64,000 bases of DNA, from assembly GCA_000004985.1 (NCBI GenBank), contig GG738863.1, one strand, 5' to 3'. The position numbers and the translations under genes are program-made. The DNA is from Naegleria gruberi. Taxonomy: Eukaryota. Position 1 is the first letter of the stretch. Every line of letters starts with the position of its first letter. The notes below the pieces were generated by a model. The model saw only the letters and a list, made by a program, of their open reading frames with translations. It made no database searches and had not been told where the DNA came from. Of the stretch, positions 505 through 59,261 are shown one piece after another.

Positions 505-3135
505 ATGCCACAATCAAATTCGGAGGGAGAATCATCAGATGACAATAACAGCAGTTCCTTCATCACCATGATGGAAGACAATGATAGAACTATTAGTAGT
601 AGTGCAGATGATGCAGTACAACCTTCTTCTTTCTCAACAATTTCATCCTCACCACCACCAATAATAAATCAACAGCAAGGAACGATGAATCCAATCTTAT
701 TGGATAGCAGCAACAACAACAATAATTTGTTGTCATCTTTATCAAATAATAATAATAATAATAATAATACAATTCTTCAAACCAATCATTCTGATTCTGA
801 AGAAGATTCCGATTCCGATAATGGAATAATACCTATTACAAGACTAGTCAATAATAATAATATCATTAATAATATTCCTCCTCACCAACCAGTAAATAAT
901 AATGGCATGAATATTCAGACAAATTCTGCAAATATACCACTCCCAACAGTCACTCAAAGACTTGGCAATTTATTGAATAATAGAAATGATCAAGATGTGA
1001 GACGACAGGCACAATCTATAGCATTGGAAATTATTAGATTATTATTCACAAGCTCAATCAAGGTTACCATCTTTTTGGAATATTATCTGCTGGCTATTGG
1101 ATGTCTTTCTTTCATATTACTTGTTGCTTTACATACCCTATTTTGCATACCACCAAATAATTATCTAAATGCTCAACAAAGAATTGACTATACAAGGAAT
1201 GTAATTATGAATAGTACAGAATCAAATGCTTTACAATTTAGCAAAATGATGAAAATATTTGCATCGGAAAAGGCACAAAATACTACAAAACACTTTACTG
1301 CCATGTTCAGATTGGGACTATTTGGTCAGGATTATCATGGAGTCATTAATACGACCATCACTCAAAATGAGACACTACCAATTCAAAATGCAACATTAAT
1401 AATGGCAGAAGCAGATCCAAATAATCCTGTTGTTAGTGGCAATTTATTGAGTAGTATAGAAAATTCTACTGTTGCAACAAGTTTAAATCAGAATGATACA
1501 ATCATGACTGAAACAACAAGTTCATATCAAAACACATCCACACTATTGGAAAGTACTAGTAGTAATTCAACAAGTGAAAATGTTACACAAAATAATGGTG
1601 CTCTGGAAAATTCTTCTGAGGAGAAATCAAACGAAGAACAACAAGAGGATGACGACATTATCGATAATCTCTTCCAATACTATGAACAATCAACATTTTA
1701 CAAGAGCATTATCAAACCACTTAATCAATTTTTCGATAAGAGATTCTATTCCAAGCCTAGAATTAATTGCCTACAAAATACTATTTTACAAAAGTACAGA
1801 GATGAAATCATTAATAGATATTACGATTCAAATGATACAATCTCACCATTGGCAGCACATTCCTACCTCTTGAGAACCTATATTGAAGGTCCAATAGATA
1901 AGAAAATGAAATCTTGGAGAAGGGAATTGGAAGCAAAGAATGAATCAATTCCATTGAGAGAATCTTATGAAAGCTTTGATACTATAGAATCTATCAAATA
2001 TTGGATTGTGACAATGTATGAAACTTCAGGTGTTACAGAAGTTTTCAATGATACTAGATTATTTGTCTATACAACAGAGAGGGGATTATTTTACATTGCC
2101 AGAGAATCAAAGCAAACATTACAAGTACCAGTTTACACTATCAATTTAGATTGGAATGAACCATGCTTTGATGCTTTTGGAGGCATTCTACCATATATTC
2201 TTTCCTATTTTATTGGATATGACACTTTAATGTTCAATGCTTTTATTCAGTACAATCATGATTTTAATCATGCATATACTATCAATAGTGGCATGATCTA
2301 CACCAAACAATTCGATGAAGTGTACTACCTGAAACATTTTGAATATGATGATGATTTTGTTACTAGGTTCTTTGTAAAGATTTCTCCATTGATTCTCTAT
2401 GTGGTCAGCTTTGTGTTGATTTACTATCTAGTTAGAACAACCCAGATGAATATTCTACATCTCATTATTGAGTTGCAAGCACATTTGAATTCTGTGAATC
2501 AAATTTTGAGATCATTCTTAACTCACCTCTTCCAAAACATCATGTTTGTTCCAGTTTTATTGGGTGTAATTGGATTTATTGATAACTTCTTTGGTGGTGA
2601 TCAAAAAATCAGTTTAATGGTTTTCTGTTTAATTTGGCTTGCTCAAATATTCTTGAACAATATTTGTAGCAGTAGATTCTCGAGAAGCGTTTTCCCTTGG
2701 ATTCTTCATTTCCATTGTGGAGTTTATTTGACCTATTACTTTAGATATCCAACAGGTTATTCATATTTTGGATTCTTTGTTTGTTTGGTTCTAGTTTCTG
2801 AAATGATGTTACACTTTTGGAATAATTATGAATATCACCATATTATGAATTATCATCCTATTTTGAGAGATTTTCTTGGAAACAATAGAGCTAATGCTGA
2901 CCCAATGTTATTCGATAGATTATTACAACAAAATGGAATTCCAGTTCTTGGGCAACCACAGACAAGAGTACAAAACGTTCAACAATTTGTTTTCAATTTA
3001 TCTGACATGCAAAATCAGAGAACAACCATTGAGCAACAAATAGGACGATTCAACATTTCAATTTCTTTGGCTCAAGATCCAAACAACCAAGCTAATGCGC
3101 CAGGTACAAACAATACCACTACTGCATCTCAATAA
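505..3135 (+). CDS. Protein with an Asn/Ser-rich low-complexity N-terminus followed by a polytopic membrane domain; function unknown
   Basis: 876-aa uninterrupted ORF. The first ~200 aa are polyN/polyS tracts. The C-terminal half has several long hydrophobic helices (e.g. VTIFLEYYLLAIGCLSFILLVAL, MFVPVLLGVIGFI, YFGFFVCLVLVSEMML). No family motif recognised. Confidence 0.45.
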   Translation: MPQSNSEGESSDDNNSSSFITMMEDNDRTISSSADDAVQPSSFSTISSSPPPIINQQQGTMNPILLDSSNNNNNLLSSLSNNNNNNNNTILQTNHSDSEEDSDSDNGIIPITRLVNNNNIINNIPPHQPVNNNGMNIQTNSANIPLPTVTQRLGNLLNNRNDQDVRRQAQSIALEIIRLLFTSSIKVTIFLEYYLLAIGCLSFILLVALHTLFCIPPNNYLNAQQRIDYTRNVIMNSTESNALQFSKMMKIFASEKAQNTTKHFTAMFRLGLFGQDYHGVINTTITQNETLPIQNATLIMAEADPNNPVVSGNLLSSIENSTVATSLNQNDTIMTETTSSYQNTSTLLESTSSNSTSENVTQNNGALENSSEEKSNEEQQEDDDIIDNLFQYYEQSTFYKSIIKPLNQFFDKRFYSKPRINCLQNTILQKYRDEIINRYYDSNDTISPLAAHSYLLRTYIEGPIDKKMKSWRRELEAKNESIPLRESYESFDTIESIKYWIVTMYETSGVTEVFNDTRLFVYTTERGLFYIARESKQTLQVPVYTINLDWNEPCFDAFGGILPYILSYFIGYDTLMFNAFIQYNHDFNHAYTINSGMIYTKQFDEVYYLKHFEYDDDFVTRFFVKISPLILYVVSFVLIYYLVRTTQMNILHLIIELQAHLNSVNQILRSFLTHLFQNIMFVPVLLGVIGFIDNFFGGDQKISLMVFCLIWLAQIFLNNICSSRFSRSVFPWILHFHCGVYLTYYFRYPTGYSYFGFFVCLVLVSEMMLHFWNNYEYHHIMNYHPILRDFLGNNRANADPMLFDRLLQQNGIPVLGQPQTRVQNVQQFVFNLSDMQNQRTTIEQQIGRFNISISLAQDPNNQANAPGTNNTTTASQ
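741..775. repeat. (AAT)n microsatellite encoding a poly-Asn tract
   Basis: Perfect aataataat... run inside the 505..3135 ORF. Similar codon-level homopolymer tracts recur throughout the window. Confidence 0.8.
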
Positions 3136-3170: not shown

Positions 3171-5752
3171 TTATTTTGTTAAACTTAAAAACATGTGATG
3201 CTCTCCAAAACTAGCAGATTTGATCTTCAATCCCAAATTTGTGTTGTCAAGATTTGGGCATGAGACGTTCAAAATTTCTACTGGAATATCGACTGCGATT
3301 GGAATGTCATGATAAAAGTAAAATCCTTGTTGATAAGGCCAACTGACTAACTCTTGATAACTGTTATCGCCTGAAACAAAGACTCTACCATCAATTCCCA
3401 CAAACAAAGTGTGATCGAATTTGGCATACACACTTTCAATTTCTCTTCTACTTAATGGATGCATATCAAAGTCATTATGTTGTGGTTGGAAATTAATCTT
3501 GAGAGGAATACAACTTGATGGCAGTTCAGTCTTAGTTCCCAATTGGCCCTTACTATTACTTCCTACAGTGTAGACAAAGTTTTGACCATTGACAAACACT
3601 GAATGGTTAGCACCTGCAGCAATAGCAACTATTGGGGTTCTGTTGAACAAATTCAATGGCAATTCTGATGGCACACAAACCTTCTTGATTCTTTCAAAAC
3701 CACACTGACCATTTCTATTATCACCACAAGTAAATACTCTTCCTGATTCGGTCAAAATTATAGTATGATTTTCACCACATTTAATATCTTTGAGTTGCTC
3801 ACCCTTAAATGTGGCAACTTTAGTCATGGATGGAATGAACTCTCTATGGTCATCAATACCAAGTTGTTTGTGATTGTTTGAACCACAAGCATACAAATCA
3901 TTATTGGCTAAAACAACTGTATGATTCTTGCCTGCTGCTATATTGGAGACAAACACTTCTTCATCCCAAACAACTTCACAAAGAGTATTTACATCCATAT
4001 TGTGACCTTGACCTAATTGACCAAACTGATTTGAGCCATATACAAACAATTTTCCATCATTTCTCTTCATAATGTAATGACATGATTGCTCATTTCCATT
4101 GCAATCAATATCTTCAATATTATCCAAATCAAATTCAATCAATGATGAATCCTTTGGACCTCCTAGAATATATACACGACCTGTTTCACTCAAAAGCATG
4201 GTGCTAGAAGCAGCACAACACACTTTCTTAATATTTGGTATGTCTTCAAATACTGAATTTTCCTCGTCCAAAAACCCAAGAGTTGGGTGAAGAATGCAAT
4301 TTTGCATACCAGTTTGGTTGTTCATATTGGATCCTGAGACTACCAATGTACAATCATTTGGATCCTTTAAACCTTGGGCAAATGTTGTAAATGTGTTGTA
4401 CTTTGGAACTAAATCTCTGTACTCCTCAAAGTATGGATGTTGAAGTATTTGTTCAGTGGTCAATCTCTCTTCTTGATTAATGTTCAACATTCCTCTCAAC
4501 AAGTCAAGTTCCTCATCTGTACAGGATCCAAAAACAAAGTTTGCAGAGCCATCTTCAGTCATTCCCCATCCCTTTTCTGTTACCAATGTTGTGACATGGT
4601 TTTTGACATTAAATTGTTGGTCACACCAGTCATTTTCAGTTGGTTTTCCAAACAGTTTTACAATACATTCCCAGATTTCTGTTGATGTAGATCCCTTAAA
4701 TATTGGGATTCCTCTGAGAAGGAAGGCAAAAATGGTTCCCAGGGTCCAAACGTTGTTGACTCTTCTGTTATTATCGCCACCGGTGACATCTCTGAAAATT
4801 CGTTCATTCTTTGTCGCAAACAAATAATCTCTAGAGTAATTCTTGCTTGGGCTTGCAAAGGATGATCTTCTTGGAGTTCTTGGGGATTTTGGTGAGGAAA
4901 TGATTGAGCTTCTTGGCGATTCAAGTATAGAATTTCTTCTTGGTGTCATAGATCCACCAGGAAATTCAATGGATCTTCGTGGTGTTGCAGTATAACTGTA
5001 AATATCATTGTTTGAATCATCTTCAATGGACACACTGGTGAGATCAAATAAACCAACTTTACAACCATCACCAATAACAATTAAATGAGGATCGACGGCA
5101 AATCTATGAAGACACTGATGAACCATTCCAGCCTTATGGATTTCATTAATTGCGGAAACGATTTGGAAAAATACAAATTTTCTCTGCTCATTATTAAGCA
5201 AACCATCCAAAATGGCATCAACCAATGAAAGTTCTAAGGAAATCGTGTCAATACAACGAAACAGTAGAATAATTACTTACGCATGTCTCCGTTTGGATAC
5301 AAAAAATAGGTCAGACCATCATCAATTGGTATCACCTTTTCTGGATGAATTATATTATCATGACGGAATGATTGGAGAAGTTTAATATATTTCATACATT
5401 TTTCTCCATCATCAACTGGATCCTTTTCATAAGGAAAGGTAAATTGGTCGACTAGCTTGTGAGTTAATTTCAGAACGAGTACATCTTTTTCTAATCCCTT
5501 TTCCTTAGCTGTAAATAACTCAACTTGAGGTACCCGATGAATATTATCACCAATCACTGCTTGCTCACTTTCCAATATTCTTTGAAAATGCTCCAATCTT
5601 CCAGTGATAACCTTTCCTAATGTTGATAACATAAACTTGTAACTACCAGCAGAAATTGGACTTCCCTTATTGGCCAATGTGTTTTGTTGGTTCTGGAGGA
5701 GAATATCTGCATTGATGTAGTTTGCAATTTCCGTGAGAGTGGCTCTCTGCAT
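3171..5752 (-). CDS. Protein-kinase-like (probably pseudokinase) domain fused to C-terminal RCC1 repeats; two exons, minus 5752..5281 and 5233..3171, with a 47-bp intron
   Basis: Exon 1 encodes the kinase N-lobe (GSPISAGSYKF...K, HDNIIHPEKV). Its donor is C|GTAAGT and the acceptor is TTAG. Exon 2 continues ...ARKFVFFQIVSAINEIHKAGMVHQCLHRF, where HRDLK is replaced by HQCLH, then ...KVGLFDL with DFG replaced by FDL. More than five RCC1-type repeats follow (YACGSNNHKQLG, VFTCGDNRNGQCG, VYTVGSNSKGQLG). Confidence 0.6.
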
Positions 5753-6338: not shown

Positions 6339-7775
6339 TTACTTCTTTCTTTGTAATTCTTGTCTGAGATAGTCTATAAAGTAGGCTTTTGAGTTGATGG
6401 CTCTGTATTCGTGATAGGTACTCATGATATAATAAAGCTCACTAATGGTTATCTTTGAAGAAATAATAGATTCTAATACTTCTGTCAAATCCTTAATACA
6501 TTGTTCATCCTTAAATGTTGAGTAGTAAACAGATTTTCCAGTAACTTTGGCAGCACATAATTGTTGGACAAATTTCAAAACAAAGTCTCCACCGAATTGC
6601 CCACATCCCCATCTTCCTGAGGTAATTTCTTTCTCAGGTACATTTTTGAATCCCAAGTAGGCCTTGTTGAGGTCACGTTTGATCATTTCAGGTTGGAAGT
6701 GCTTTCTAGATATGGCATCCATAATAATAATATCAACAGTATGTCCAAGAGGTTCGTATAAACCTGTAAATTCAAAAGTATTGAGATAGCCCTTATATTC
6801 GCTATATCTGACCATACCTCTCATGGTCATAATTTCTGTATCACTCAAAGATTCACAAATGAGGAGAGTGAGGAAAGATTCTGGGCAACAACTGAAAAGG
6901 ATTTCTTCTTGAGTGAGTGATGGAATAATTGAACCAATGTGAATGAAACGATTGGCAAAATCAACAAATCCACGACACAAAATATCCTCCATTCTTCCAT
7001 CATGAAGCTTGATAATAGACTTGGCTTCTTCTGCATTAGAAAAATCGATGTCCTTCATTTCAGCCCAATTTGGTTCCTCCTCTACTGTCAAGTTGTGACG
7101 AGTAAAAACAATATCCTCTCTATCTATGCACAATTGTTGTTCATGATTAGCTTGTTGATAAAAGTAACTTAATTGACAAATAATTCTTTCAATAGATTCC
7201 TCCAAACGACATACATAAAGTCTATTGAAATCCAAAACTCCAAAATCTCTCTCCCTATCTTTTTGCATAAAATTGTGTATTTCCGAAGAAATGTTCAAGA
7301 AGAAGGCATTTGCTAAAATGCAACGAACATCCTTTGGTTTGACAGTGAATGAACCTTGTTGATGCATCTCAATGAGTGGTAATCTTTCGATCAATTCGCT
7401 CTCTGTTGCTTCGAGAGCATATTGAGCAATCTTTGGAAGCAAGTGTTGGTAAAAATCAAATTCCTTATGTTCTTCGCCTCTTCCACGAATATATTCTTCA
7501 AAACTTTCAATGGCAACTTCAAGACCTGGGAACCCGAATCTTCTCTTTGAAGCATCGGTCTGGAATAAGTGAAGAATATCTTGAAGCTCTTCATATTCTT
7601 CAATTTCTTCTATTCCTTCCAGGATGGCTCTCGTAATCTCGGTTCCCTTTATAAAGAAACGATGACGAGTAGGCTCATGAACATGAATTTGAAACAACTT
7701 TTCAGCAGAGGCAGTCTTGTGAAGAATTGGTGAAAGAGGAACCTGATCAATGATATTATTATTGTTTGGAATCAT
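6339..7775 (-). CDS. Poly(ADP-ribose) glycohydrolase (PARG)-like protein
   Basis: Single 478-aa ORF. The PARG catalytic-loop region reads VDFANRFIHIGSIIPSLTQEEILF. The QEE is retained but the GGG of the GGG-X6-8-QEE signature is HIG. The C-terminal tail GRWGCGQFGGDFVLKFVQQLCAA matches the PARG WGCGAFGGD motif. Confidence 0.6.
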   Translation of the reverse strand: MIPNNNNIIDQVPLSPILHKTASAEKLFQIHVHEPTRHRFFIKGTEITRAILEGIEEIEEYEELQDILHLFQTDASKRRFGFPGLEVAIESFEEYIRGRGEEHKEFDFYQHLLPKIAQYALEATESELIERLPLIEMHQQGSFTVKPKDVRCILANAFFLNISSEIHNFMQKDRERDFGVLDFNRLYVCRLEESIERIICQLSYFYQQANHEQQLCIDREDIVFTRHNLTVEEEPNWAEMKDIDFSNAEEAKSIIKLHDGRMEDILCRGFVDFANRFIHIGSIIPSLTQEEILFSCCPESFLTLLICESLSDTEIMTMRGMVRYSEYKGYLNTFEFTGLYEPLGHTVDIIIMDAISRKHFQPEMIKRDLNKAYLGFKNVPEKEITSGRWGCGQFGGDFVLKFVQQLCAAKVTGKSVYYSTFKDEQCIKDLTEVLESIISSKITISELYYIMSTYHEYRAINSKAYFIDYLRQELQRKK

Positions 7776-24156: not shown

Positions 24157-27100
24157 ATGTATCAACATCTTCCTTCATACATTTTCCTTCTATTTTTCTT
24201 CTTGTTATTATTTGTTGTTTCTGACTCCGAATGCCTTCATCATCATCATCATCGGTATAACACAGAGGAACCAACAAACATCTACACAGCCATATATTAT
24301 GTTGATCAACAGCAGCAGGGAAGAGAGTATAGAAATTTAACGTGTCGAGATGAACAACATCCCTGTTCTACTTTGGATCAAGTCATACAGGCAGCTAGGA
24401 AGGAATTATCAATGATGAGTTCTAATGACAATATCAACCATATTGCTAATGGTGAACGTCCTTTGATTATTGACACATTCAAAATGGTGATTATGAGTCC
24501 TTTCAATTTATCAAGATTTTCATCAGAATTACCTTTCGAATTTACCGAATATTGTACAAGATTTGAATTATTTTGGATTGGAAAGTTTATTACAGAATTA
24601 ATATTACCAAGGGAAAGTGTAATTGACTTGTTCTATATGAATGGTGGAATATTTGATAATTTTTCTACCCTGCAATTCAACAAGGGAATTGATAATGTGA
24701 AAATAGAGAATTGTACTGGAGTGATAGATGTCAACACTAATATTAGACAGCTGGAGATTGAATTTTGTAAATTTAATGAAATAATCATTCAAAACAATAT
24801 TAGACACATACAAATCAGCAACTCGAGGCTCAATTTCTTTAATTTACATTCAGAAAATATTCAATCCATGGTCAAGATTGAAAATTCCTTTTTAACTGGC
24901 AGTGTGCATATGCAGCTGTTTGAGCTATTTTCAATCTTTAATAGTACTTGGACCAGCATGAATACAAAATCTGAATTCAAACTTGGAAGGACAGTTCTAT
25001 TATCAAATATCACTACAAACTCTTTGGCACTATTTATGTTGATTGATACATTACAATTGGACAATGTTTTGGTGAATGGCACAAGAAATGATTGTCAATT
25101 TTATCAAATGATTAGTATCAACTCTTTGATAATTCAAAATTGCACATTTACTAATAATTATTTTTCAGAAGCCAATAGATTTATGTCTTTACAGATTGTA
25201 ACTTCCCTAACCATACGAGATACATTATATTCCCAGAATAATGGCGGATTTTTGCTCTTTACTGAGCCACAAAGTGTGGTGTTTACTAAAATTTCCCTTA
25301 CCAATAATATTATTCAAAACAATACCATTAAGAGTGATGCTTTATTGAAATTCATTGACCAAAATCATAGTTACTACAATATTGAAATTGAAAATTGTTA
25401 TTTTATGAATAACATTGGCAATAATTTGGGATCTTGTCTATATGTAGATGGTGGAATAGTTGATATTAGAAACTCGGTATTTTCTTTCAATATAGCACTT
25501 TTTGGTGGTTCCATATATGCTACCATGTCGAGTGTAGTAGTGAATAATTGCTCATATATTCAAAACCGTGCTGATATTGGTGGTGCAGTGTATTGTTTAG
25601 GTTCACACCTTGAAATTGAGAATGTGTATTGTGGAGAGAATCTGGCATTCTATGCAGGAGGCTGCATCTATTCAGATAGCACTGTGGTATCAAACAGATT
25701 GGAAGGAAGAAATAACATAGGTGCTTCTTATGGTAATCTTATTGCCTATCCATTACAAACCTTAGCACTTAGTATGAATGATATAATTATTGAAGATAGT
25801 ATTCAAGCCTATCCTGGACAATTACTCTATTTAAATCTTTATATAATGGATAAGAATAATCAGAGTGCTCTATTTCTATCAGATTCTAATTATTTAACAA
25901 TCCAACCAAAACATCCATCAGATGGCTTGTTATCTCAAAGCACTATTTCTGGAAATGCTCACTTGATAGTAGGATTACAATTAAAACTCAACAAACCATA
26001 TATTAGAAACATACCAATCACTATTACAGTTAATGCAAATATTATTAGAGAAATTCAAATTGAAATCCTTCCCTGTCCTTACAGTTATATTTTGAAAGAG
26101 AGCACTGGTTTTGGATGCGAATATCTTGCTATTGAAATTATAATTCCTTCAGTTGTTTTGGGATTCATTTCACTTTTGATTATTATTGGATCAATTTCTT
26201 ATGGATCTTTGATTTTAATTAAAAAATTATTGAAATTACAAAAACAAGAAAAAGCAGAGAAGGAGATTGAGAAAAAGTTCAATGATAAGCAATTCATTTT
26301 CGAAACAAATGAAGAATCACCACTCCTCTTCAATGATGATAACTATTCCAATTCTATTAACAACAATAGAGAAATGTCTAAAACAAAGAATATTTCTCAA
26401 CAATATATTATTCCAATAGCTGAGATTGAAATTGTAAAACGAATTGGGGAAGGCACATTTGGAAGTGTTTATCATGCGCTATGGCATAAGACTGATGTGG
26501 CAATCAAAAGACTTAAACATGAAACTAGTGATGATGAAGAATTCGAAAGAGAAGCTATTTTAATGTCTTCTTTAAGACATCCATTTATAGTAAGCTGTTT
26601 TGGAGTTTCACTAACAACCAATGCAAAATATATGGTCGTTGAGTATATGAACAATGGAAGTGTTGAGAAGGCAATTTATAATTCCAATCAGGGAAAAAAT
26701 GTTTTGAGGTTTAATGTGAAATTGAAGATTCTCATTAGTGTGGCTAAAGGATTGACCTATCTACATTCAATCAAACCACACAAAATAATTCATAGGTAAG
26801 TACTACTTGAAAAAGGTTAATGGTTTAAAGAAATCTTTCATAGAGACCTAAAATCTGCCAATATTCTGTTAGATTCAAATATGAATGCTAAAGTATGTGA
26901 TTTTGGATTGAGTAAGGTAGTTTCCAATTCGCATACAATGACTTCTAATGTGGGCACATTATTTTACACCAGTAAGTTCTTTATGTTATTCTTGTATTGT
27001 GATCAAATCTACCGAATCATGTTGAATATCAATTTTTGCTTCCCTTAATGTTTGTCACAAATAGGTCCAGGTAAGTATTTCAGTTGGTTTATTATTGTTG

Positions 27101-39492: not shown

Positions 39493-40451
39493 ATGGGTCT
39501 CTCAGCATCTACCTCTCTTGTCTCTTCACATAATAAGTTTTNNNNNNNNNNNNNNNNNNNNNNNNNNNNNNNNNNNNNNNNNNNNNNNNNNNNNNNNNNN
39601 NNNNNNNNNNNNNNNNNNNNNNNNNNNNNNNNNNNNNNNNNNNNNNNNNNNNNNNNNNNNNNNNNNNNNNNNNNNNNNNNNNNNNNNNNNNNNNNNNNNN
39701 NNNNNNNNNNNNNNNNNNNNNNNNNNNNNNNNNNNNNNNNNNNNNNNNNNNNNNNNNNNNNNNNNNNNNNNNNNNNNNNNNNNNNNNNNNNNNNNNNNNN
39801 NNNNNNNNNNNNNNNNNNNNNNNNNNNNNNNNNNNNNNNNNNNNCGATCAACAAGACACCTATGACAGCAATTTCTTTGGTGTTGATGGTGAAACCAATT
39901 GTAGATTGATGAATAAGAATAATTCAAAGGAACAATATGGTGCTGAAGGTGAATATCATTGGGTAACCATGCCATTCTCTGATGTCAAGTACAAGATGAC
40001 CATCGTCGCTGTCAAGAATCAAGCTCATCAACAAACACTTGATGGATGGGTTGCTCAAAAATTGAATCAAGGAATAGACACTGCCTTCCCAACAGTAGAA
40101 ACTAAACTCGGCTCATTTGCCTTCCCTAAATTCGAACTCTCTCAAGGAATGGAATTGAGCGACATTTTACAAAATGCTCCATTCAACATTAAGAAACCAT
40201 TTACAAATGAGGCCGATTTCTCTCACCTCCTCCAAAAGGAAAGTATCTTTATTGATAAAGTCATTCATAAGGCATCTATTAAGGTTGATGAAGCAGGTGC
40301 TGAGGCTAGTGCAGCAACTGCTATTGTGATGAGATGTTTGAGTTATGATCCAAATGAAATTAGATTTGTGGTCAATTCACCATTTGCATTTGTGTTGACT
40401 GATGATTCTAGTAAGACTGTTCTTTTTGTTGGTAAAGTCAACAAGTTGTAA
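39493..40451 (+). CDS. Serpin (serine protease inhibitor), interrupted by assembly gap 39542..39844
   Basis: The post-gap ORF has the serpin C-terminal half. Hinge/reactive-centre loop: IKVDEAGAEASAATAIVMRCLS. Signature FVVNSPFAFVLTD...TVLFVGKVNKL. The ATG at 39493 (MGLSASTSLV) is probably the start, before the gap. Confidence 0.7.
39542..39844. other. Assembly gap (303 N)
   Basis: Run of N inside the serpin gene. Confidence 1.
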
Positions 40452-40608: not shown

Positions 40609-40679
40609 TGCTTACTAGCTCAGCAGGGAGCGACTAACTTCAGATTAGTAGGTCGGCGGATCAAGTCCACCGTAGGTAT
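40609..40679 (+). tRNA. tRNA-like gene with anticodon UCA (candidate UGA-reading/suppressor or Sec-like tRNA, or a tRNA-derived pseudogene)
   Basis: Hand-folded cloverleaf: acceptor TGCTTAC/GTAGGTA (two G-U pairs), U8-A9, D-stem GCTC/GAGC with a short 6-nt loop, anticodon stem ACTAA/TTAGT, loop CTTCAGA (U33, anticodon TCA, G37), 5-nt variable loop, T-arm GGCGG-ATCAAGT-CCACC (one C-A mismatch; A54). A T-run follows 8 nt downstream. Confidence 0.35.
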
Positions 40680-40686
40680 CGTCAAA

Positions 40687-45451: not shown

Positions 45452-46809
45452 TTGAATTATCATCTAAAAAAAATGCTCTCCTTCTTCTCTAGGGCTCGAT
45501 CTCTCTCATCCTCAACAGAAAATAATGAAGAATCAACAACGTCTAATACAAAATCAAGTAAAATAATCATTGAGGAGATTGATTCTGAAACTGAAATAAC
45601 AACCACACCAACAACCCCACAACCTACAACAGAAACAGAAACAAGAGAAGATCCATCCCAAACTTCTCCCTCAAGCGCCGAAAAAAGGTACCACACTCCA
45701 AGAATAACTGTAGATGTTATCAGGGACTTGTGCTCTCGCCAAAGTTTGTTCCAAACACCCTATTTGAATGATAAACTCTTCCTTCATCACCGAGGCTTCA
45801 GAGTCATTGAAAATTTAGAATTATACACTGAACTGAAAGCTTTATGGCTTGAGGGTAATGCCATCACTAAAATTGAAAACCTTGGCCACTTGGATAAGCT
45901 CAGATGTTTGTATCTCAACCAGAATCTCATCACTACAATTGAAAATTTGGAAAATTTAGTGAATTTGCAAACATTGAACCTCTCCAGTAACAGAATTACT
46001 GTTGTAGAAAATTTGGAATGTTGCCCTCAATTGGAGACTTTNNNNNNNNNNNNNNNNNNNNNNNNNNNNNNNNNNNNNNNNNNNNNNNNNNNNNNNNNNN
46101 NNNNNNNNNNNNNNNNNNNNNNNNNNNNNNNNNNNNNNNNNNNNNNNNNNNNNNNNNNNNNNNNNNNNNNNNNNNNNNNNNNNNNNNNNNNNNNNNNNNN
46201 NNNNNNNNNNNNNNNNNNNNNNNNNNNNNNNNNNNNNNNNNNNNNNNNNNNNNNNNNNNNNNNNNNNNNNNNNNNNNNNNNNNNNNNNNNNNNNNNNNNN
46301 NNNNNNNNNNNNNNNNNNNNNNNNNNNNNNNNNNNNNNNNNNNNNNNNNNNNNNNNNNNNNNNNNNNNNNNNNNNNNNNNNNNNNNNNNNNNNNNNNNNN
46401 NNNNNNNNNNNNNNNNNNNNNNNNNNNNNNNNNNNNNNNNNNNNNNNNNNNNNNNNNNNNNNNNNNNNNNNNNNNNNNNNNNNNNNNNNNNNNNNNNNNN
46501 NNNNNNNNNNNNNNNNNNNNNNNNNNNNNNNNNNNNNNNNNNNNNNNNNNNNNNNNNNNNNNNNNNNNNNNNNNNNNNNNNNNNNNNNNNNNNNNNNNNN
46601 NNNNNNNNNNNNNNNNNNNNNNNNNGGCAACTCTCACATTCGAACATGCTGGTGAAGAAAAATCAATGATTGTCGATGTAAACCTATACAATTCCGAAGT
46701 TTGCAGAAAGGAATATGCCAGACTGTATCAAAATAATCAAGACAAACCATCAAAAACCCAACTCTACTCTCCTCACATCGTTTCACTGTGGCTTAGAGAA
46801 TTGAAATAA
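45452..46809 (+). CDS. LRR protein resembling dynein axonemal assembly factor 1 (DNAAF1/LRRC50/ODA7), interrupted by assembly gap 46042..46625
   Basis: LCSRQSLFQTPYLNDKLFLHHRGFRVIENLELYTELKALWLEGNAITKIENL...CLYLNQNLITTIENLENLVNLQTLNLSSNRITVVENLECCPQLE follows the DNAAF1 N-terminal LRR block almost position by position. The post-gap segment (46626..46809) may be the C-terminus of the same gene. Confidence 0.55.
46042..46625. other. Assembly gap (584 N)
   Basis: Run of N inside the DNAAF1-like gene. Confidence 1.
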
Positions 46810-49617: not shown

Positions 49618-50544
49618 TTATTTTCTTCTTTTGCTCTTCTTCGCCAATTGAGTGGAACTTCCACTCAATTTGTAAAGCAAGAAGGAATCGTGTTTATCTT
49701 TGAAACAATATCTATGCATTGGACCACATACGCTACAACCAGTAGAGGCACTATTCCTCACCTTCTCAAGTTTATGACAAACAACACAATGAGCAACTCT
49801 ACCAGAATAGCCCAGTTCACGAACCGTAATTAATTTGTGTGCTGAGGCAAGTTTGATTGGTGACAACTGTAAACAAAGTTGATCCACAAAATCATTCTTT
49901 GTAATGGATGATTTTTTAGCCAATTTGAAGGCGACGAATGCATTATGAATCATCATACTAAAATACCAATACAATAAACCAATTCTCCAACGATACTTTC
50001 GGTAAGGGAATTTAGTTTGGAGGCGGAATTATTAACTTGGTCAATATGACCTGCTTCACTGAAATATCTATTAACAAGAGTGGGAACAACTTTACCTTGA
50101 AGAGTGAAATCCGTTGTTTCCAAATTATCCATTTTCTCTTGACGAATGACAAGGTTTCCATTTTCGAAATCTATTGGAATAGTTGTCAAAAAATTCAAAA
50201 TCTTACCCTCATTATTCTTAATACAAAATACACCAAATNNNNNNNNNNNNNNNNNNNNNNNNNNNNNNNNNNNNNNNNNNNNNNNNNNNNNNNNNNNNNN
50301 NNNNNNNNNNNNNNNNNNNNNNNNNNNNNNNNNNNNNNNNNNNNNNNNNNNNNNNNNNNNNNNNNNNNNNNNNNNNNNNNNNNNNNNNNNNNNNNNNNNN
50401 NNNNNNNNNNNNNNNNNNNNNNNNNNNNNNNNNNNNNNTTTCGACAATCAGGAAATTGAACTTCCCAAAGAATGTAAAAAGAGAATAGTCACTTGGGAAA
50501 ATCAAGCTAGACAAATCATACGTGAAGCCAAAAAATATGAGCAA
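49618..50544 (-). mobile_element. piggyBac-like transposase remnant (C-terminal DDE region plus Cys-rich domain), spanning assembly gap 50239..50438
   Basis: ORF 49618..49974 (minus) ends with a piggyBac-type CRD: HCVVCHK...TGCSVCGPMHRYCFKDKHD, i.e. C-x2-C...C-x2-C...C-F-x-x-H. The adjacent upstream ORF has ...RYFSEAGHIDQVN, comparable to the transposase NKYMGGVDxxDQ region. The element is truncated at only ~300 aa, and TIR/TTAA ends were not identified. Confidence 0.45.
50239..50438. other. Assembly gap (200 N)
   Basis: Run of N inside the piggyBac-like remnant. Confidence 1.
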
Positions 50545-53972: not shown

Positions 53973-56900
53973 ATGCGAAGAATTCCAAGAACACCTTCTT
54001 CATCATCGAATAATAATCAACACAATTTACCAGTGATTGTTATTGATGATTCCACTGATGAGGATACAAGTATTTTACTTCCAGAAACTCCACCAAGAAG
54101 AGTTGTCGAACAACAGCAACGACAACGGGAAAATCTACCTATTGCTGTCTCTGATGATGAAACAACTCTGAATCCCTTCTCTCCAGGAGGTTCACCTTTA
54201 TATGCACCTTCTTCACCACAACTTCCTCTCAATTCTTTGGATTGGTCAGATTCAGAAGACTCCTCCGAATATGAATCATCATCTGATGAAGATGAAACAC
54301 CAAACCACAATAATATTGATGACTTTCTTGATAGATTAACAAGAGAAGAAGAAAGAGAAAGAGTCACCACTCACCAAACTCACCCACCAGTTGTACAATA
54401 CCCTTCAGTAGTGAATAGTAATAATAATTATAATAATTATAATTATTTACAATCACGACTGATCAATAATACTAACAGTAATAATAATATCAACTTGACT
54501 CTTCCCTTCGTGAATAACAATAATAATAGTAGTAATAATAGTAGTAACAGTAGTAGTAGTAATAATAATTCTAACAGAAATCTATTGCATCAACATAGAT
54601 TGCAGTCAACATCAGCAATAGCAGCAAGAATTCCAATTCAAGCATCCCGTAGATTTATAACTCCAACTACTTCTTCTACAAACAGAAATACACCTTTCGC
54701 ATCAGCATCTAATCATGCAAATCATCACCATCATCAACATCTTTTCACTAATAGAAATAATATCATAGGAATTCAAAGAAACAATGACCACCATGATACA
54801 CCATTTGAAAGAATGGTTGAAGAACATATTTTAGCCCAAGTTATTGCACGAACCCAACGTCACCAAGTGGGAGGAGCTATCCANNNNNNNNNNNNNNNNN
54901 NNNNNNNNNNNNNNNNNNNNNNNNNNNNNNNNNNNNNNNNNNNNNNNNNNNNNNNNNNNNNNNNNNNNNNNNNNNNNNNNNNNNNNNNNNNNNNNNNNNN
55001 NNNNNNNNNNNNNNNNNNNNNNNNNNNNNNNNNNNNNNNNNNNNNNNNNNNNNNNNNNNNNNNNNNNNNNNNNNNNNNNNNNNNNNNNNNNNNNNNNNNN
55101 NNNNNNNNNNNNNNNNNNNNNNNNNNNNNNNNNNNNNNNNNNNNNNNNNNNNNNNNNNNNNNNNNNNNNNNNNNNNNNNNNNNNNNNNNNNNNNNNNNNN
55201 NNNNNNNNNNNNNNNNNNNNNNNNNNNNNNNNNNNNNNNNNNNNNNNNNNNNNNNNNNNNNNNNNNNNNNNNNNNNNNNNNNNNNNNNNNNNNNNNNNNN
55301 NNNNNNNNNNNNNNNNNNNNNNNNNNNNNNNNNNNNNNNNNNNNNNNNNNNNNNNNNNNNNNNNNNNNNNNNNNNNNNNNNNNNNNNNNNNNNNNNNNNN
55401 NNNNNNNNNNNNNNNNNNNNNNNNNNNNNNNNNNNNNNNNNNNNNNNNNNNNNNNNNNNNNNNNNNNNNNNNNNNNNNNNNNNNNNNNNNNNNNNNNNNN
55501 NNNNNNNNNNNNNNNNNNNNNNNNNNNNNNNNNNNNNNNNNNNNNNNNNNNNNNNNNNNNNNNNNNNNNNNNNNNNNNNNNNNNNNNNNNNNNNNNNNNN
55601 NNNNNNNNNNNNNNNNNNNNNNNNNNNNNNNNNNNNNNNNNNNNNNNNNNNNNNNNNNNNNNNNNNNNNNNNNNNNNNNNNNNNNNNNNNNNNNNNNNNN
55701 NNNNNNNNNNNNNNNNNNNNNNNNNNNNNNNNNNNNNNNNNNNNNNNNNNNNNNNNNNNNNNNNNNNNNNNNNNNNNNNNNNNNNNNNNNNNNNNNNNNN
55801 NNNNNNNNNNNNNNNNNNNNNNNNNNNNNNNNNNNNNNNNNNNNNNNNNNNNNNNNNNNNNNNNNNNNNNNNNNNNNNNNNNNNNNNNNNNNNNNNNNNN
55901 NNNNNNNNNNNNNNNNNNNNNNNNNNNNNNNNNNNNNNNNNNNNNNNNNNNNNNNNNNNNNNNNNNNNNNNNNNNNNNNNNNNNNNNNNNNNNNNNNNNN
56001 NNNNNNNNNNNNNNNNNNNNNNNNNNNNNNNNNNNNNNNNNNNNNNNNNNNNNNNNNNNNNNNNNNNNNNNNNNNNNNNNNNNNNNNNNNNNNNNNNNNN
56101 NNNNNNNNNNNNNNNNNNNNNNNNNNNNNNNNNNNNNNNNNNNNNNNNNNNNNNNNNNNNNNNNNNNNNNNNNNNNNNNNNNNNNNNNNNNNNNNNNNNN
56201 NNNNNNNNNNNNNNNNNNNNNNNNNNNNNNNNNNNNNNNNNNNNNNNNNNNNNNNNNNNNNNNNNNNNNNNNNNNNNNNNNNNNNNNNNNNNNNNNNNNN
56301 NNNNNNNNNNNNNNNNNNNNNNNNNNNNNNNNNNNNNNNNNNNNNNNNNNNNNNNNNNNNNNNNNNNNNNNNNNNNNNNNNNNNNNNNNNNNNNNNNNNN
56401 NNNNNNNNNNNNNNNNNNNNNNNNNNNNNNNNNNNNNNNNNNNNNNNNNNNNNNNNNNNNNNNNNNNNNNNNNNNNNNNNNNNNNNNNNNNNNNNNNNNN
56501 NNNNNNNNNNNNNNNNNNNNNNNNNNNNNNNNNNNNNNNNNNNNNNNNNNNNNNNNNNNNNNNNNNNNNNNNNNNNNNNNNNNNNNNNNNNNNNNNNNNN
56601 NNNNNNNNNNNNNNNNNNNNNNNNNNNNNNNNNNNNNNNNNNNNNNNNNNNNNNNNNNNNNNNNNNNNNNNNNNNNNNNNNNNNNNNNNNNNNNNNNNNN
56701 NNNNNNNNNNNNNNNNNNNNNNNNNNNNNNNNNNNNNNNNNNNNNNNNNNNNNNNNNNNNNNNNNNNNNNNNNNNNNNNNNNNNNNNNNNNNNNNNNNNN
56801 NNNNNNNNNNNNNNNNNNNNNNNNNNNNNNNNNNNNNNNNNNNNNNNNNNNNNNNNNNNNNNNNNNNNNNNNNNNNNNNNNNNNNNNNNNNNNNNNNNNN

Positions 56901-59261
56901 NNNNNNNNNNNNNNNNNNNNNNNNNNNNNNNNNNNNNNNNNNNNNNNNTTGGAACTATTCTCACTGGATGAATTTTTAAAATTGTTGTCTAATGTGACTT
57001 CACCTTCAATTATTACAAGAATGGAGGTGAATGATTCTGCAAGTGGAGAACAGTCAATCGTCTATCAGACAACTGAGGAAAATTTTCAATTATTGACAAC
57101 ACATCTGCTAATGACTTGGGAGAGTTTACCTTCATCAATAGTAATTGTTATTTTCAGACTGTTATTTATGGTCTTTCTAATATCTTTACTTCCGCTTTGT
57201 ATTATTTACAGAAAGAGAGAACCCATCAGAAGAAAGTTACCAGTATCATTTTCTATTCTAATATTGGGTCTCTGTACTAACTCGAGATCTTTAATAGAGT
57301 CTATTCCTGTTCGAAAGATAATATTCTTACAGTACTGGAATCAATATTTGGAGGCGAAAACGAAGATGAATCCTTTCGAGTTTTTCGAAAAGTATTCTCA
57401 AAATGGTATCCCAGATTGGATGTTTAATATTACATATTATGAGAATATCATGTGTTACTCAGTTACTTTTGGTATTGTAATAATTTACATATTTTCAATC
57501 GTACTTTACTTTACTCACATGACCAAATTCATGTTGGACAGAATCATTACTAAGAAAAAAATGACCCTTAAGGATTCATTAGACAGAATCAAAGAAAAAG
57601 GAGCGAAAACAGTCATGTCGAATCAACCGCAACCAACCACTACCGTTCAATCAACCAATGACATTACACTGGTTCCTAAAAGTGTTGAAATTGAATTAGT
57701 GGAAAATGATCCTGCTATTTCCGTAACACTTAATACTATTGAGAATTCCACAATAGGAGACAAGAGATATCCCACATTAACAGTTGAAAACTCAATAGAA
57801 ATTGACAAAAATCTAGTAGCTCCAGAATCAACCGGTCAACTCACTACCATGACTAATGATACTTCCTTGACTACATCTCAACAACAAGGGGGTGGTTCAA
57901 CTAATATTCACATATCTTTCAGTGATGATACAGAGGATGACTTAACTTCAAGTGCTATAACAGATGCTGATGAAATATTTCTTACTGATGTAGACACTTT
58001 TGGGACAGAAGACAAGGAAAATGGATTAGCAACGGAAGGATATGAAAACTTTACAGAGAATACTAAAGCACTGAAAGTAATGCAATTTATAGAAGAGAAG
58101 AAGGTTATTCAAATAGTATTTTCTGTTGGATTGTTTCTAATTTGGTTTATCATTGCTGCTCTATTATTATTGTTTTGGAAGCAGGCGGGCCAATTTGTTT
58201 CTCTTTTTCCTGTTTTTGAGACGATCCAGGGAGTGTGTACTTCTGAGAAAAGATCAACCATTGGGACATTTTGTCTCTTGTTTGGACTTTTATTCCCAAT
58301 TGTATTCGTTTTTGTGTATTCTTTGGATATTTATCAATCAATATCTGAATATAGAATACAAAAGGACACAATTAAGAGGAATAGCCGGCAAGAAAATATG
58401 CCAAACTTTTTCATATACTACTTTATTGACACCGACTTGTTTCTCTACAGGTTAGAATGCTCATTGTTATTTTTATTTGGTGCTTTGTCTGTTTGCTTAT
58501 ATGTCATATTTTGGGATCCATCAGGAGATGACAAGATCAAAGGTTTGATATCACATCTGATATCCCTTTTTGGTATTGAATTTTTTATGATTGTAATTAT
58601 GCCTGGAATTTCAATTTTTGCAACAATTTACAGAACTTGGAAAGAAAAGAAATTGTTAAACAAACAAGATGAAAATTTAGATCAAATGACTGTATTGAAT
58701 TTGAAAAGGTTTGCACCTGGTATTGAATGTATAGATTTTATTCTAACACATCCAATAGAGAGACAGTTGTTTTACAAGTATTTGACTTCTGAGTTTTCTC
58801 AAGAAAATCTTCTCTTCATGGAGGATATTATGAGATTTCAAAGAATACCTCCCCAAAAACTTAGATATAAGATTATGAAATTGAGAGAAATAATAACACT
58901 CTATCTCATTCAGAATAGTTCTGTATTCGAGGTCAATATTTCTAAAAAATTGATTGACTCTGAAATACAGTCCTACATTCTTATTGAGCACATTCTTCAC
59001 CATCACTCAATTAAAATGATCAATCTTCCAAAATTTATCAAGGAAACACCCAAGATTAACTCATTCCCTGAACCGCTTCAACAGAACGACACAGACAGAG
59101 AATTACTACTCAATGCATTCAAGGAAATCAATCATCCAGATTTCATGAAAGGAATTATTACAGAAGCTTACTCTAATTTACTGGATTCTTATCTCAGATT
59201 CATAAGTAGTAGAGTGTGGCTAATACATTTGGAGAAAGTGAAACAATTTGGAATATTGTAA
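53973..59261 (+). CDS. Seven-TM protein with C-terminal RGS (regulator of G-protein signalling) domain; the N-terminal region is separated from it by the 2-kb assembly gap 54884..56948
   Basis: After the gap there are about seven hydrophobic helices, then an RGS box: FILTHPIERQLFYKYLTSEFSQENLLFMEDIMRFQ...LREIITLYL. Before the gap there is a Ser/Asn/His-rich low-complexity N-terminus, which may or may not be the same gene. Confidence 0.5.
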   Translation: MRRIPRTPSSSSNNNQHNLPVIVIDDSTDEDTSILLPETPPRRVVEQQQRQRENLPIAVSDDETTLNPFSPGGSPLYAPSSPQLPLNSLDWSDSEDSSEYESSSDEDETPNHNNIDDFLDRLTREEERERVTTHQTHPPVVQYPSVVNSNNNYNNYNYLQSRLINNTNSNNNINLTLPFVNNNNNSSNNSSNSSSSNNNSNRNLLHQHRLQSTSAIAARIPIQASRRFITPTTSSTNRNTPFASASNHANHHHHQHLFTNRNNIIGIQRNNDHHDTPFERMVEEHILAQVIARTQRHQVGGAIXXXXXXXXXXXXXXXXXXXXXXXXXXXXXXXXXXXXXXXXXXXXXXXXXXXXXXXXXXXXXXXXXXXXXXXXXXXXXXXXXXXXXXXXXXXXXXXXXXXXXXXXXXXXXXXXXXXXXXXXXXXXXXXXXXXXXXXXXXXXXXXXXXXXXXXXXXXXXXXXXXXXXXXXXXXXXXXXXXXXXXXXXXXXXXXXXXXXXXXXXXXXXXXXXXXXXXXXXXXXXXXXXXXXXXXXXXXXXXXXXXXXXXXXXXXXXXXXXXXXXXXXXXXXXXXXXXXXXXXXXXXXXXXXXXXXXXXXXXXXXXXXXXXXXXXXXXXXXXXXXXXXXXXXXXXXXXXXXXXXXXXXXXXXXXXXXXXXXXXXXXXXXXXXXXXXXXXXXXXXXXXXXXXXXXXXXXXXXXXXXXXXXXXXXXXXXXXXXXXXXXXXXXXXXXXXXXXXXXXXXXXXXXXXXXXXXXXXXXXXXXXXXXXXXXXXXXXXXXXXXXXXXXXXXXXXXXXXXXXXXXXXXXXXXXXXXXXXXXXXXXXXXXXXXXXXXXXXXXXXXXXXXXXXXXXXXXXXXXXXXXXXXXXXXXXXXXXXXXXXXXXXXXXXXXXXXXXXXXXXXXXXXXXXXXXXXXXXXXXXXXXXXXXXXXXXXXXXXXXXXXXXXXXXXXXXXXXXXXXXXXXXXXXXXXXXXXXXXXXXXXXXXXXXXLELFSLDEFLKLLSNVTSPSIITRMEVNDSASGEQSIVYQTTEENFQLLTTHLLMTWESLPSSIVIVIFRLLFMVFLISLLPLCIIYRKREPIRRKLPVSFSILILGLCTNSRSLIESIPVRKIIFLQYWNQYLEAKTKMNPFEFFEKYSQNGIPDWMFNITYYENIMCYSVTFGIVIIYIFSIVLYFTHMTKFMLDRIITKKKMTLKDSLDRIKEKGAKTVMSNQPQPTTTVQSTNDITLVPKSVEIELVENDPAISVTLNTIENSTIGDKRYPTLTVENSIEIDKNLVAPESTGQLTTMTNDTSLTTSQQQGGGSTNIHISFSDDTEDDLTSSAITDADEIFLTDVDTFGTEDKENGLATEGYENFTENTKALKVMQFIEEKKVIQIVFSVGLFLIWFIIAALLLLFWKQAGQFVSLFPVFETIQGVCTSEKRSTIGTFCLLFGLLFPIVFVFVYSLDIYQSISEYRIQKDTIKRNSRQENMPNFFIYYFIDTDLFLYRLECSLLFLFGALSVCLYVIFWDPSGDDKIKGLISHLISLFGIEFFMIVIMPGISIFATIYRTWKEKKLLNKQDENLDQMTVLNLKRFAPGIECIDFILTHPIERQLFYKYLTSEFSQENLLFMEDIMRFQRIPPQKLRYKIMKLREIITLYLIQNSSVFEVNISKKLIDSEIQSYILIEHILHHHSIKMINLPKFIKETPKINSFPEPLQQNDTDRELLLNAFKEINHPDFMKGIITEAYSNLLDSYLRFISSRVWLIHLEKVKQFGIL
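54884..56948. other. Assembly gap (2065 N)
   Basis: Run of N upstream of the 7TM-RGS coding region. Confidence 1.

Follow-up and report, generated by a model that had tools for sequence, protein, structure and literature searches.

A predicted MAPK-like pseudokinase fused to an RCC1-like propeller in Naegleria gruberi

Pseudokinases are a known kind of protein, and so are fusions of a kinase with RCC1. In Nek9 (Nercc1) and Nek8 a kinase is followed by a C-terminal RCC1-like propeller, and the RCC1 domain of Nek9 regulates the kinase module in cis by autoinhibition, with an activation that involves CDK1 (PMC5716973). The Tribbles/STK40 and EphA10/EphB6 pseudokinases keep a kinase fold under selection although their catalytic motifs have degenerated, typically with an eroded glycine loop and a changed DFG; they keep the F-helix Asp and several keep the HRD Asp (motif tables of PMC7586955). 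Seven-blade RCC1-like domains (RLDs) occur in RCC1, RPGR, UVR8 and HERC1/2, and in protists they are fused to many modules, as in the myosin-RCC1 and kinesin-RCC1 proteins of Tetrahymena (PMC3143110). Here we describe a gene of Naegleria gruberi that joins a MAPK-like kinase domain to an RLD and whose kinase-like domain is supported by its sequence as a pseudokinase. The gene lies in a stretch of 64,000 nucleotides of contig GG738863.1 (GenBank assembly GCA_000004985.1), which in its whole length is called the window below and to which the coordinates refer unless another locus is named.

The closest relatives of the kinase-like domain are the MAPKs (ERK7/MAPK15, ERK1/2, JNK), with which it shares the predicted fold, the C-lobe helices αF-αI with the MAPK/CMGC insert, the CMGC arginine, the activation-loop Tyr and the 'HPYF' ending. 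Unlike the MAPKs, the window protein lacks the catalytic Asp, Lys and Asn, the glycine loop and the αC Glu, reads R-D-Y for TxY, has an activation loop about 55 residues longer, shows by eye no evident acidic common-docking patch after HPYF (RDLVPK, where ERK2 has DPSDEP) and adds an N-terminal extension of 50 aa and the C-terminal RLD. Nek9 has the same order of domains but belongs to the NEK family, is catalytically active and carries a long C-terminal tail with a coiled coil, whereas the window protein ends with the propeller. In comparison with the Tribbles and Eph pseudokinases, the window protein loses both the HRD and the F-helix Asp but keeps the DFG Asp, its parent family is CMGC/MAPK and its partner is an RLD; with the known RLD proteins it shares the seven blades, but the partner here is a predicted pseudokinase.

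Catalytic positions of the kinase-like domain

The catalytic residues were located by four alignments (MAFFT with MAPKs, phmmer against ERK7, a hidden Markov model (HMM) of active MAPKs, and a family profile against JNK2) and by the strand register of an AlphaFold 2 (AF2) model, the structural part of this mapping having the DSSP strand register as its sole basis. In all four alignments the HRD position falls on H196-Q197-C198 and is followed by an insertion of five residues (about L199-A203); in the AF2 model, strand β6 ends at His196 and ten residues precede β7 where five are expected. The catalytic Asp (PKA D166) is absent from four of four orthologues, counting the window gene, its position being occupied by Cys198 in the window and by Thr in the other three. 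The position of the catalytic-loop Lys corresponds to His200 or lies inside the insertion, and the equivalent of Asn171 is Leu208. A first-pass annotation of the locus had read HQCLHRF in place of HRDLKxxN; the string is indeed present at aa 196-202 with HQC at the HRD position, but the residues after it belong to the insertion. The same annotation had allowed that the motif region might be an insertion with the real motifs elsewhere, and the region does prove to be partly an insertion, but no real HRD is restored elsewhere.

The DFG motif's Mg-binding Asp (PKA D184) corresponds to D221 in all four alignments, the motif reads D-L-T or D-L-S across the orthologues, and in the AF2 model a single residue stands between β8 and Asp221. 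A phmmer alignment to one ERK2 entry gives a different DFG register, which leaves a residual ambiguity of 1-2 residues. The DFG Asp is thus most probably retained as D-L-T, and the earlier reading of FDL in place of DFG was one residue out of register by the four alignments and the AF2 model.

The N-lobe had been described as normal, which the residue mapping contradicts: another loop stands in place of the glycine loop, Tyr122 occupies the position of the αC Glu and the best Pfam stretch covers the C-lobe only. The canonical GxGxxG expected in exon 1 is absent in either alignment register, and in the AF2 model a low-confidence loop of 14 residues joins β1 and β2. Since the position of the αC Glu (PKA E91) is Tyr or Asn in all orthologues, a Lys-Glu pair is impossible. 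For the VAIK lysine, which the first-pass annotation had marked in exon 1 for checking, the candidate is the invariant Lys95, which lies either at the VAIK position (PKA K72, by MAFFT) or one residue after it (by the MAPK HMM and alignment A7). In the C-lobe, the APE motif reads I-F-R with loss of its Glu, and the F-helix Asp is replaced by Asn318 in the MAFFT alignment with MAPKs.

All six frames of 3171-5752 were searched for HRDxKxxN or DFG and contained neither, so that no alternative isoform of the locus restores these motifs; elsewhere in the window, canonical kinase motifs occur only in a gene at 24.1-27 kb that is unrelated. By sequence, a kinase-like domain counts as a pseudokinase if it lacks the VAIK Lys, the HRD Asp or the DFG Asp, or more than one of them (PMC13519141; PMC7586955), and the HRD Asp is missing here throughout the orthologues. 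The first-pass proposal of a pseudokinase scaffold instead of an active enzyme therefore stands as far as its core is concerned, because every available sequence-level test supports a pseudokinase; catalytic inactivity is a prediction.

Domains, gene model and orthologues

The Pfam Pkinase model (PF00069) matches the kinase-like domain significantly (E=8.8e-14; 52 bits, where the cut-off is 31.7), with its best stretch at aa 318-426, and a MAPK-only HMM that we built from 103 active MAPK-like sequences scores it at 148 bits across both lobes. When a single sequence was used as query, the 60 best PDB matches were all MAPKs, led by Toxoplasma ERK7 (6v6a) and ERK1/2; the family profile ranked JNK1/2, ERK7, Cryptosporidium MAPK, a Cryptosporidium CDK and p38, and over the two routes taken together the 60 best matches were MAPKs apart from two entries of a Cryptosporidium CDK-like kinase. 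The best named matches in the sequence libraries were of the MAPK15 type. The AF2 model of the kinase domain was computed for the N. lovaniensis orthologue from a multiple sequence alignment (MSA) of 76 sequences, with N. lovaniensis as first row and the window exons as separate rows; it contains β1-β5, αC and αD-αI (predicted local distance difference test, pLDDT, 73.6; predicted TM-score, pTM, 0.73), and its best Foldseek matches are Cryptosporidium MAPK, ERK7 and ERK2, with a target-normalised TM-score (TMt) of about 0.71. A full-length AF2 model from a 12-sequence alignment (pLDDT 56, N-lobe below 50) was rejected for residue mapping. Between αG and αH lies the CMGC insert; R302, the CMGC arginine of the P+1 loop, and the 'HPYF' domain end are present as well. 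By sequence match and predicted fold, the domain is MAPK-like within the CMGC group; the subfamily rankings disagree, the single sequence favouring ERK7/ERK2 and the family profile JNK. The likeness to Nek9 drawn by the first-pass annotation thus holds for the order of the domains but not for the kinase family, no NEK being present among the 60 best PDB matches. The N-terminal extension is kept in four of four orthologues and absent from MAPKs, and is helical but of low confidence in the AF2 model.

The activation loop contains an insertion rich in proline-directed sites. The [ST]P sites of the insertion include TPRR at 241, 254 and 277 and SPSK at 285, and their density is about 10 per 100 aa, compared with 0.3 elsewhere in the protein (about 30-fold). 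The consensus [ST]Px[KR] is the classical one for CDKs, and [ST]P is the minimal consensus for MAPKs and CDKs. Three [ST]Px[KR] sites, two TPRR and one SPxK, are positionally conserved in all four orthologues. The insertion measures 73, 74 and 84 aa in the other orthologues, with a family composition of 55-60% S/T/P/R/K; it is disordered, with a pLDDT below 50, and has a ratio of nonsynonymous to synonymous substitution rates (dN/dS) of 0.12 vs 0.04 in the flanking sequence. The TxY motif is replaced by R/K-D-Y: Thr is lost, and Tyr294 is invariant with the MAPKs, as is Arg302 in the MAFFT alignment, while the MAPK HMM leaves aa 290-305 unaligned. By our own count, 26 residues separate Y294 from W320, compared with 25 in the ERK2 of the MAFFT alignment, and because the two spacings are nearly equal the insertion lies within the activation loop proper and not in the P+1 segment.

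The C-terminal half is predicted to be a complete seven-blade RCC1-like propeller, in agreement with the multi-blade propeller of the first-pass annotation. Pfam matches it with WD40_RLD (3.6e-97), RCC1 (2.5e-36) and RCC1_2 (3.5e-36), and with Pkinase matching the other half this also bears out the kinase-RCC1 fusion that had been proposed. Seven repeat turns lie at about aa 458, 514, 557, 608, 661, 715 and 779; five are of the GxNxxGQLG type and came from a motif scan, and two are degenerate and were read by eye. The best PDB matches of the RLD are UVR8, RPGR, HERC1 and RCC1 (1e-26 to 1e-43), RCC1 itself (1e-26) ranking below UVR8 and RPGR (1e-43). In the full-length AF2 model this region is β-rich by DSSP, with moderate confidence only.

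Translation and splice reconstruction place the gene on the minus strand, from an ATG at 5752 to a stop at 3171-3173, and reproduce the 47-bp intron and the predicted 5233/5281 junction given by the first-pass annotation. The exon-1 open reading frame (ORF) from 5752 hits a stop soon after NGDM (a read-through ORF of 159 aa), and a 684-aa ORF occupies 5225..3171; excision of 5234..5280 fuses the two in frame, with the exons abutting at 5281/5233, and the spliced product has 844 aa with the reading frame intact throughout. The protein alignment with the orthologues is unbroken across the predicted junction (GDM/QLSLVDAILDG), and support for the junction comes from three other lineages, whose genes carry an intron at this codon, and from the NCBI model of the N. 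lovaniensis gene. The coordinates of the features are collected in Table 1.

Table 1. Coordinates of the kinase-RCC1 gene, its predicted domains and residues, and related features
Feature	Position	Strand	Remarks
Exon 1	5281..5752	-	aa 1-157 and first base of codon 158; N-terminus aligns with N. lovaniensis P0001
Intron	5234..5280	-	47 nt, GTAAGT...TTAG, phase 1
Exon 2	3171..5233	-	aa 158-844 and TAA stop (3171-3173); uninterrupted in the window gene
N-terminal extension	5606..5752	-	aa 1-49 (ANYINADILL…ANKGSPISAGSYK); family-specific
Predicted MAPK-like pseudokinase domain	4416..5605	-	aa ~50-430; contains the intron; basis Pfam, PDB, HMM, AF2
Lys95	5468..5470	-	strand β3; invariant in four orthologues
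Tyr122 at αC-Glu position	5387..5389	-	Asn in two orthologues; REI aligns with KYI / KNV
Remodelled catalytic loop	5085..5120	-	H196-QCLHRFAVDP-H207; 10/12 positions invariant among orthologues
Probable DFG equivalent D221-L222-T223	5037..5045	-	Asp retained; Asp and Leu invariant among orthologues
Activation-loop insertion	4839..5036	-	aa 224-289, 66 aa, 59% S/T/P/R/K, seven [ST]P sites
P+1 / APE equivalent	4791..4838	-	aa 290-305 (YSRDYLFATKNERIFR); Tyr294 and CMGC Arg302 kept, APE replaced by I-F-R
Predicted RCC1-like domain (RLD)	3174..4355	-	aa ~451-844; seven blades, N/C-terminal closure
Second intron of orthologues	L001 12231-12345; L002 4797-4881; L003 near 2605		
Poly(ADP-ribose) glycohydrolase (PARG)	window 6339-7775; L001 8154-9724; L002 548-2200	- (window)	directly upstream, same orientation

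Three orthologues were found, 57-64% identical: that of N. lovaniensis (protein P0001, locus L001), P0002 (L002, from Logan SRR29240419) and P0003 (L003, from ENA ERZ27315067). P0001 is the 'hypothetical protein C9374_002938' of 861 aa, with 63% identity over 100% of the query; P0002 and P0003 came as fragmentary prokaryote-style gene calls and were rebuilt as spliced orthologues before comparison. The first intron occupies one codon position (DM/Q) in all four genes and has lengths of 191 nt in L001, 219 nt in L002 and 40 nt in L003. The three orthologues have a second intron within the RLD (GDNRFGQ/CGFER) that the window gene is without, which indicates loss or gain of an intron inside the clade. 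The upstream PARG neighbour is kept in both of the orthologue loci that are long enough to show neighbours (L001 and L002).

Selection was estimated by the Nei-Gojobori method between N. lovaniensis and L002 and gave approximate dN/dS values of 0.044 for the kinase-like domain, 0.058 for the RLD and 0.12 for the activation-loop insertion; over the region of the remodelled catalytic loop, D221 and K95 the value is 0.03-0.04. The kinase-like half is under strong purifying selection, with a constraint that equals or exceeds that on the propeller, and it is therefore not decaying.

Our searches suggest a narrow distribution. When the kinase-domain profile was run exhaustively with HMMER against 1.84 billion representatives, only two matches fell below 1e-30, the family representative P0003 and the window's own exon-1 ORF, the rest being ordinary MAPK/CDK-like proteins at 1e-19 or weaker. 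Ten long library matches (P0012, P0017, P0052, P0074, P0079, P0084, P0090, P0130, P0132 and P0147) were searched for an RCC1 domain and none of the ten carries one; P0012 scores high solely through two tandem MAPK-like domains. Word-indexed searches, of which one used a four-orthologue profile, covered 5.8 billion clusters and gave the same three relatives and no new member. The architecture therefore appears confined to Naegleria-like heteroloboseans, and the fusion, as judged from these comparisons, is lineage-restricted and independent of the Nek9-type fusions.

Two further observations came from these searches. P0012 (742 aa, unrelated) has the motifs HRCIRPNH/DFK and HRCIRPRH/DFR and is another candidate for a CMGC-type pseudokinase. 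The 159-aa exon-1 read-through ORF (5273-5752, minus strand) is identical on a 1.1-kb contig, L004, of the ENA metagenome assembly ERZ929261, so that the same or a near-identical organism was present in an environmental sample.

Proposed role and competing explanations

In our view the gene product is probably a signalling scaffold that has no catalytic activity and is found only in Naegleria and its nearest relatives. What the protein keeps is the C-lobe core with its CMGC/MAPK insert, the DFG Asp, a Lys in the β3 region, the CMGC arginine and the activation-loop Tyr; what it loses is the catalytic base, the catalytic-loop Lys and Asn, the αC Glu, the glycine loop, the APE Glu and the F-helix Asp. 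The kinase-like domain would then transfer no phosphate and would work as a binding and conformational module. The giant activation loop may be a substrate of proline-directed kinases, either CDKs or genuine MAPKs, and its phosphorylation might toggle the pseudokinase between presenting and occluding the attached propeller, which would serve as a second interaction platform, its partner being either a small GTPase, engaged as by a GEF, or some other protein. Nek9 is a parallel in function to such a proline-directed phospho-switch, and not a family to which the window protein would belong.

Several points weigh against this scaffold. We infer the phospho-switch and the propeller ligand, and the scaffold role itself is read from sequence and predicted structure. 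The AF2 model represents the N. lovaniensis orthologue and not the window protein, and its MSA is rich in MAPKs. The N-lobe alignment is uncertain, with two registers for the glycine-loop region and two for the β3 Lys. The dN/dS values are approximate, dS being about 1 and near saturation. The retained DFG Asp, and possibly the β3 Lys, would be compatible with nucleotide binding, and the near-invariant HQxLHRFxVDPH loop could mark a new active site and not a dead one.

This last point leads to the alternative of an atypical active enzyme, either a protein kinase of an unusual kind or a different transferase that depends on nucleotide, in which D221 and K95 would bind Mg-nucleotide and a loop containing His200, Arg201, Asp205 and His207 would supply a non-canonical base. 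Kinase-fold proteins that lack the canonical residues have proved active, for example WNK and the AMPylase SelO, and the invariance of D221, of K95 and of 10 of the 12 catalytic-loop positions, together with the low dN/dS of that region, is what such an enzyme would be expected to have. Nevertheless, we hold it to be unlikely, because the glycine loop, the αC Glu, the HRD Asp, the loop Lys and Asn, the APE Glu and the F-helix Asp are missing together; no Lys-Glu bridge can form where there is no αC Glu, the lost F-helix Asp is the residue that anchors the catalytic loop, and a K95 at VAIK+1, where the MAPK HMM puts it, would by our own reading of the β-strand point away from the ATP site. Likewise unlikely is the idea that the remodelled loop, the DFG Asp and the β3-region Lys form a new nucleotide-dependent site, whether a catalytic centre or a switch that senses nucleotide or phosphate, which would couple phosphorylation of the loop by CDKs or MAPKs to a GEF-like activity of the propeller. 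If this were true, the protein would be a MAPK-derived regulator of a small GTPase, with a part, for example, in the mitosis of Naegleria or in its transition from amoeba to flagellate.

The remaining two explanations are contradicted already by the comparative data, and we give either of them very little credence. The order of an N-terminal kinase and a C-terminal RCC1-like propeller, with the RCC1 domain described for Nek9 (PMC5716973), would fit a divergent orthologue of the animal NEK-RCC1 fusions of the Nek9/Nek8 type, but no NEK occurs among the 60 best PDB matches by sequence or profile or among the 50 best structural matches, the CMGC insert and CMGC arginine are present, the best Foldseek matches are MAPKs, and the window protein has neither the C-terminal tail nor the coiled coil of Nek9. 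A decaying pseudogene or an artefact of the gene model, with odd motifs produced by drift or mis-splicing, could account for the weak Pfam kinase score of 52 bits in a gene model that is predicted from sequence. It is hard to reconcile, however, with 844 intact codons, with the same architecture and the same substituted motifs in four lineages, with dN/dS values of 0.04-0.06, with an intron position shared by four of four genes and with a PARG neighbour shared with L001 and L002. The non-catalytic scaffold thus remains the explanation that we prefer.

Other features of the window and significance

The window is AT-rich (about 33% GC) with compact genes and short introns. It contains five runs of N, which are assembly gaps (39542-39844, 46042-46625, 50239-50438, 54884-56948 and 61724-61852), none of them in the studied gene; these runs account for the bins of 15-26% GC and for ORFs at 45.4-46.8 kb and 54.8-57 kb that overlap in several frames and are spurious. 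Convergent with the studied gene, with the two stops 35 bp apart, lies an Asn/Ser-rich ORF of 876 aa with hydrophobic segments (505-3135, plus strand); Pfam gave no match for it, and its N. lovaniensis counterpart is a 710-aa gene in the same position and orientation. In N. lovaniensis an ADP-ribosylglycohydrolase gene lies two genes beyond PARG. A second kinase gene at 24157-26913 (plus strand) has an 880-aa ORF that ends in a kinase N-lobe (GEGTFGSV at 26446) and, after an apparent intron, continues with HRDLKSAN (26839-26862) and DFGLS (26899-26913); its best match is PK_Tyr_Ser-Thr, and it has the appearance of an active kinase and is no paralogue of the MAPK-like pseudokinase. ARAGORN calls a tRNA-SeC with anticodon TCA at 40609-40680 (plus strand), which implies selenoprotein machinery in the organism.

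The N. lovaniensis orthologue is already in the databases as an uncharacterised 'protein kinase domain-containing protein'. In the literature searched we found neither the window gene nor any fusion of an RCC1-like propeller with a pseudokinase of MAPK origin described, and the same literature contains no account of such a pseudokinase combined with both a giant phospho-acceptor loop and an RLD. No long-standing question is opened by it, lineage-specific shuffling of RLDs and kinases being common in protists (PMC3143110). If the scaffold model is true, the gene would be a compact case of repurposing of the MAPK fold, one that retains the C-lobe and the phospho-acceptor loop but gives up the chemistry. 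In a genus that numbers the pathogen N. fowleri among its species, the predicted pseudokinase-RLD gene could also serve as a clade-specific marker or handle.

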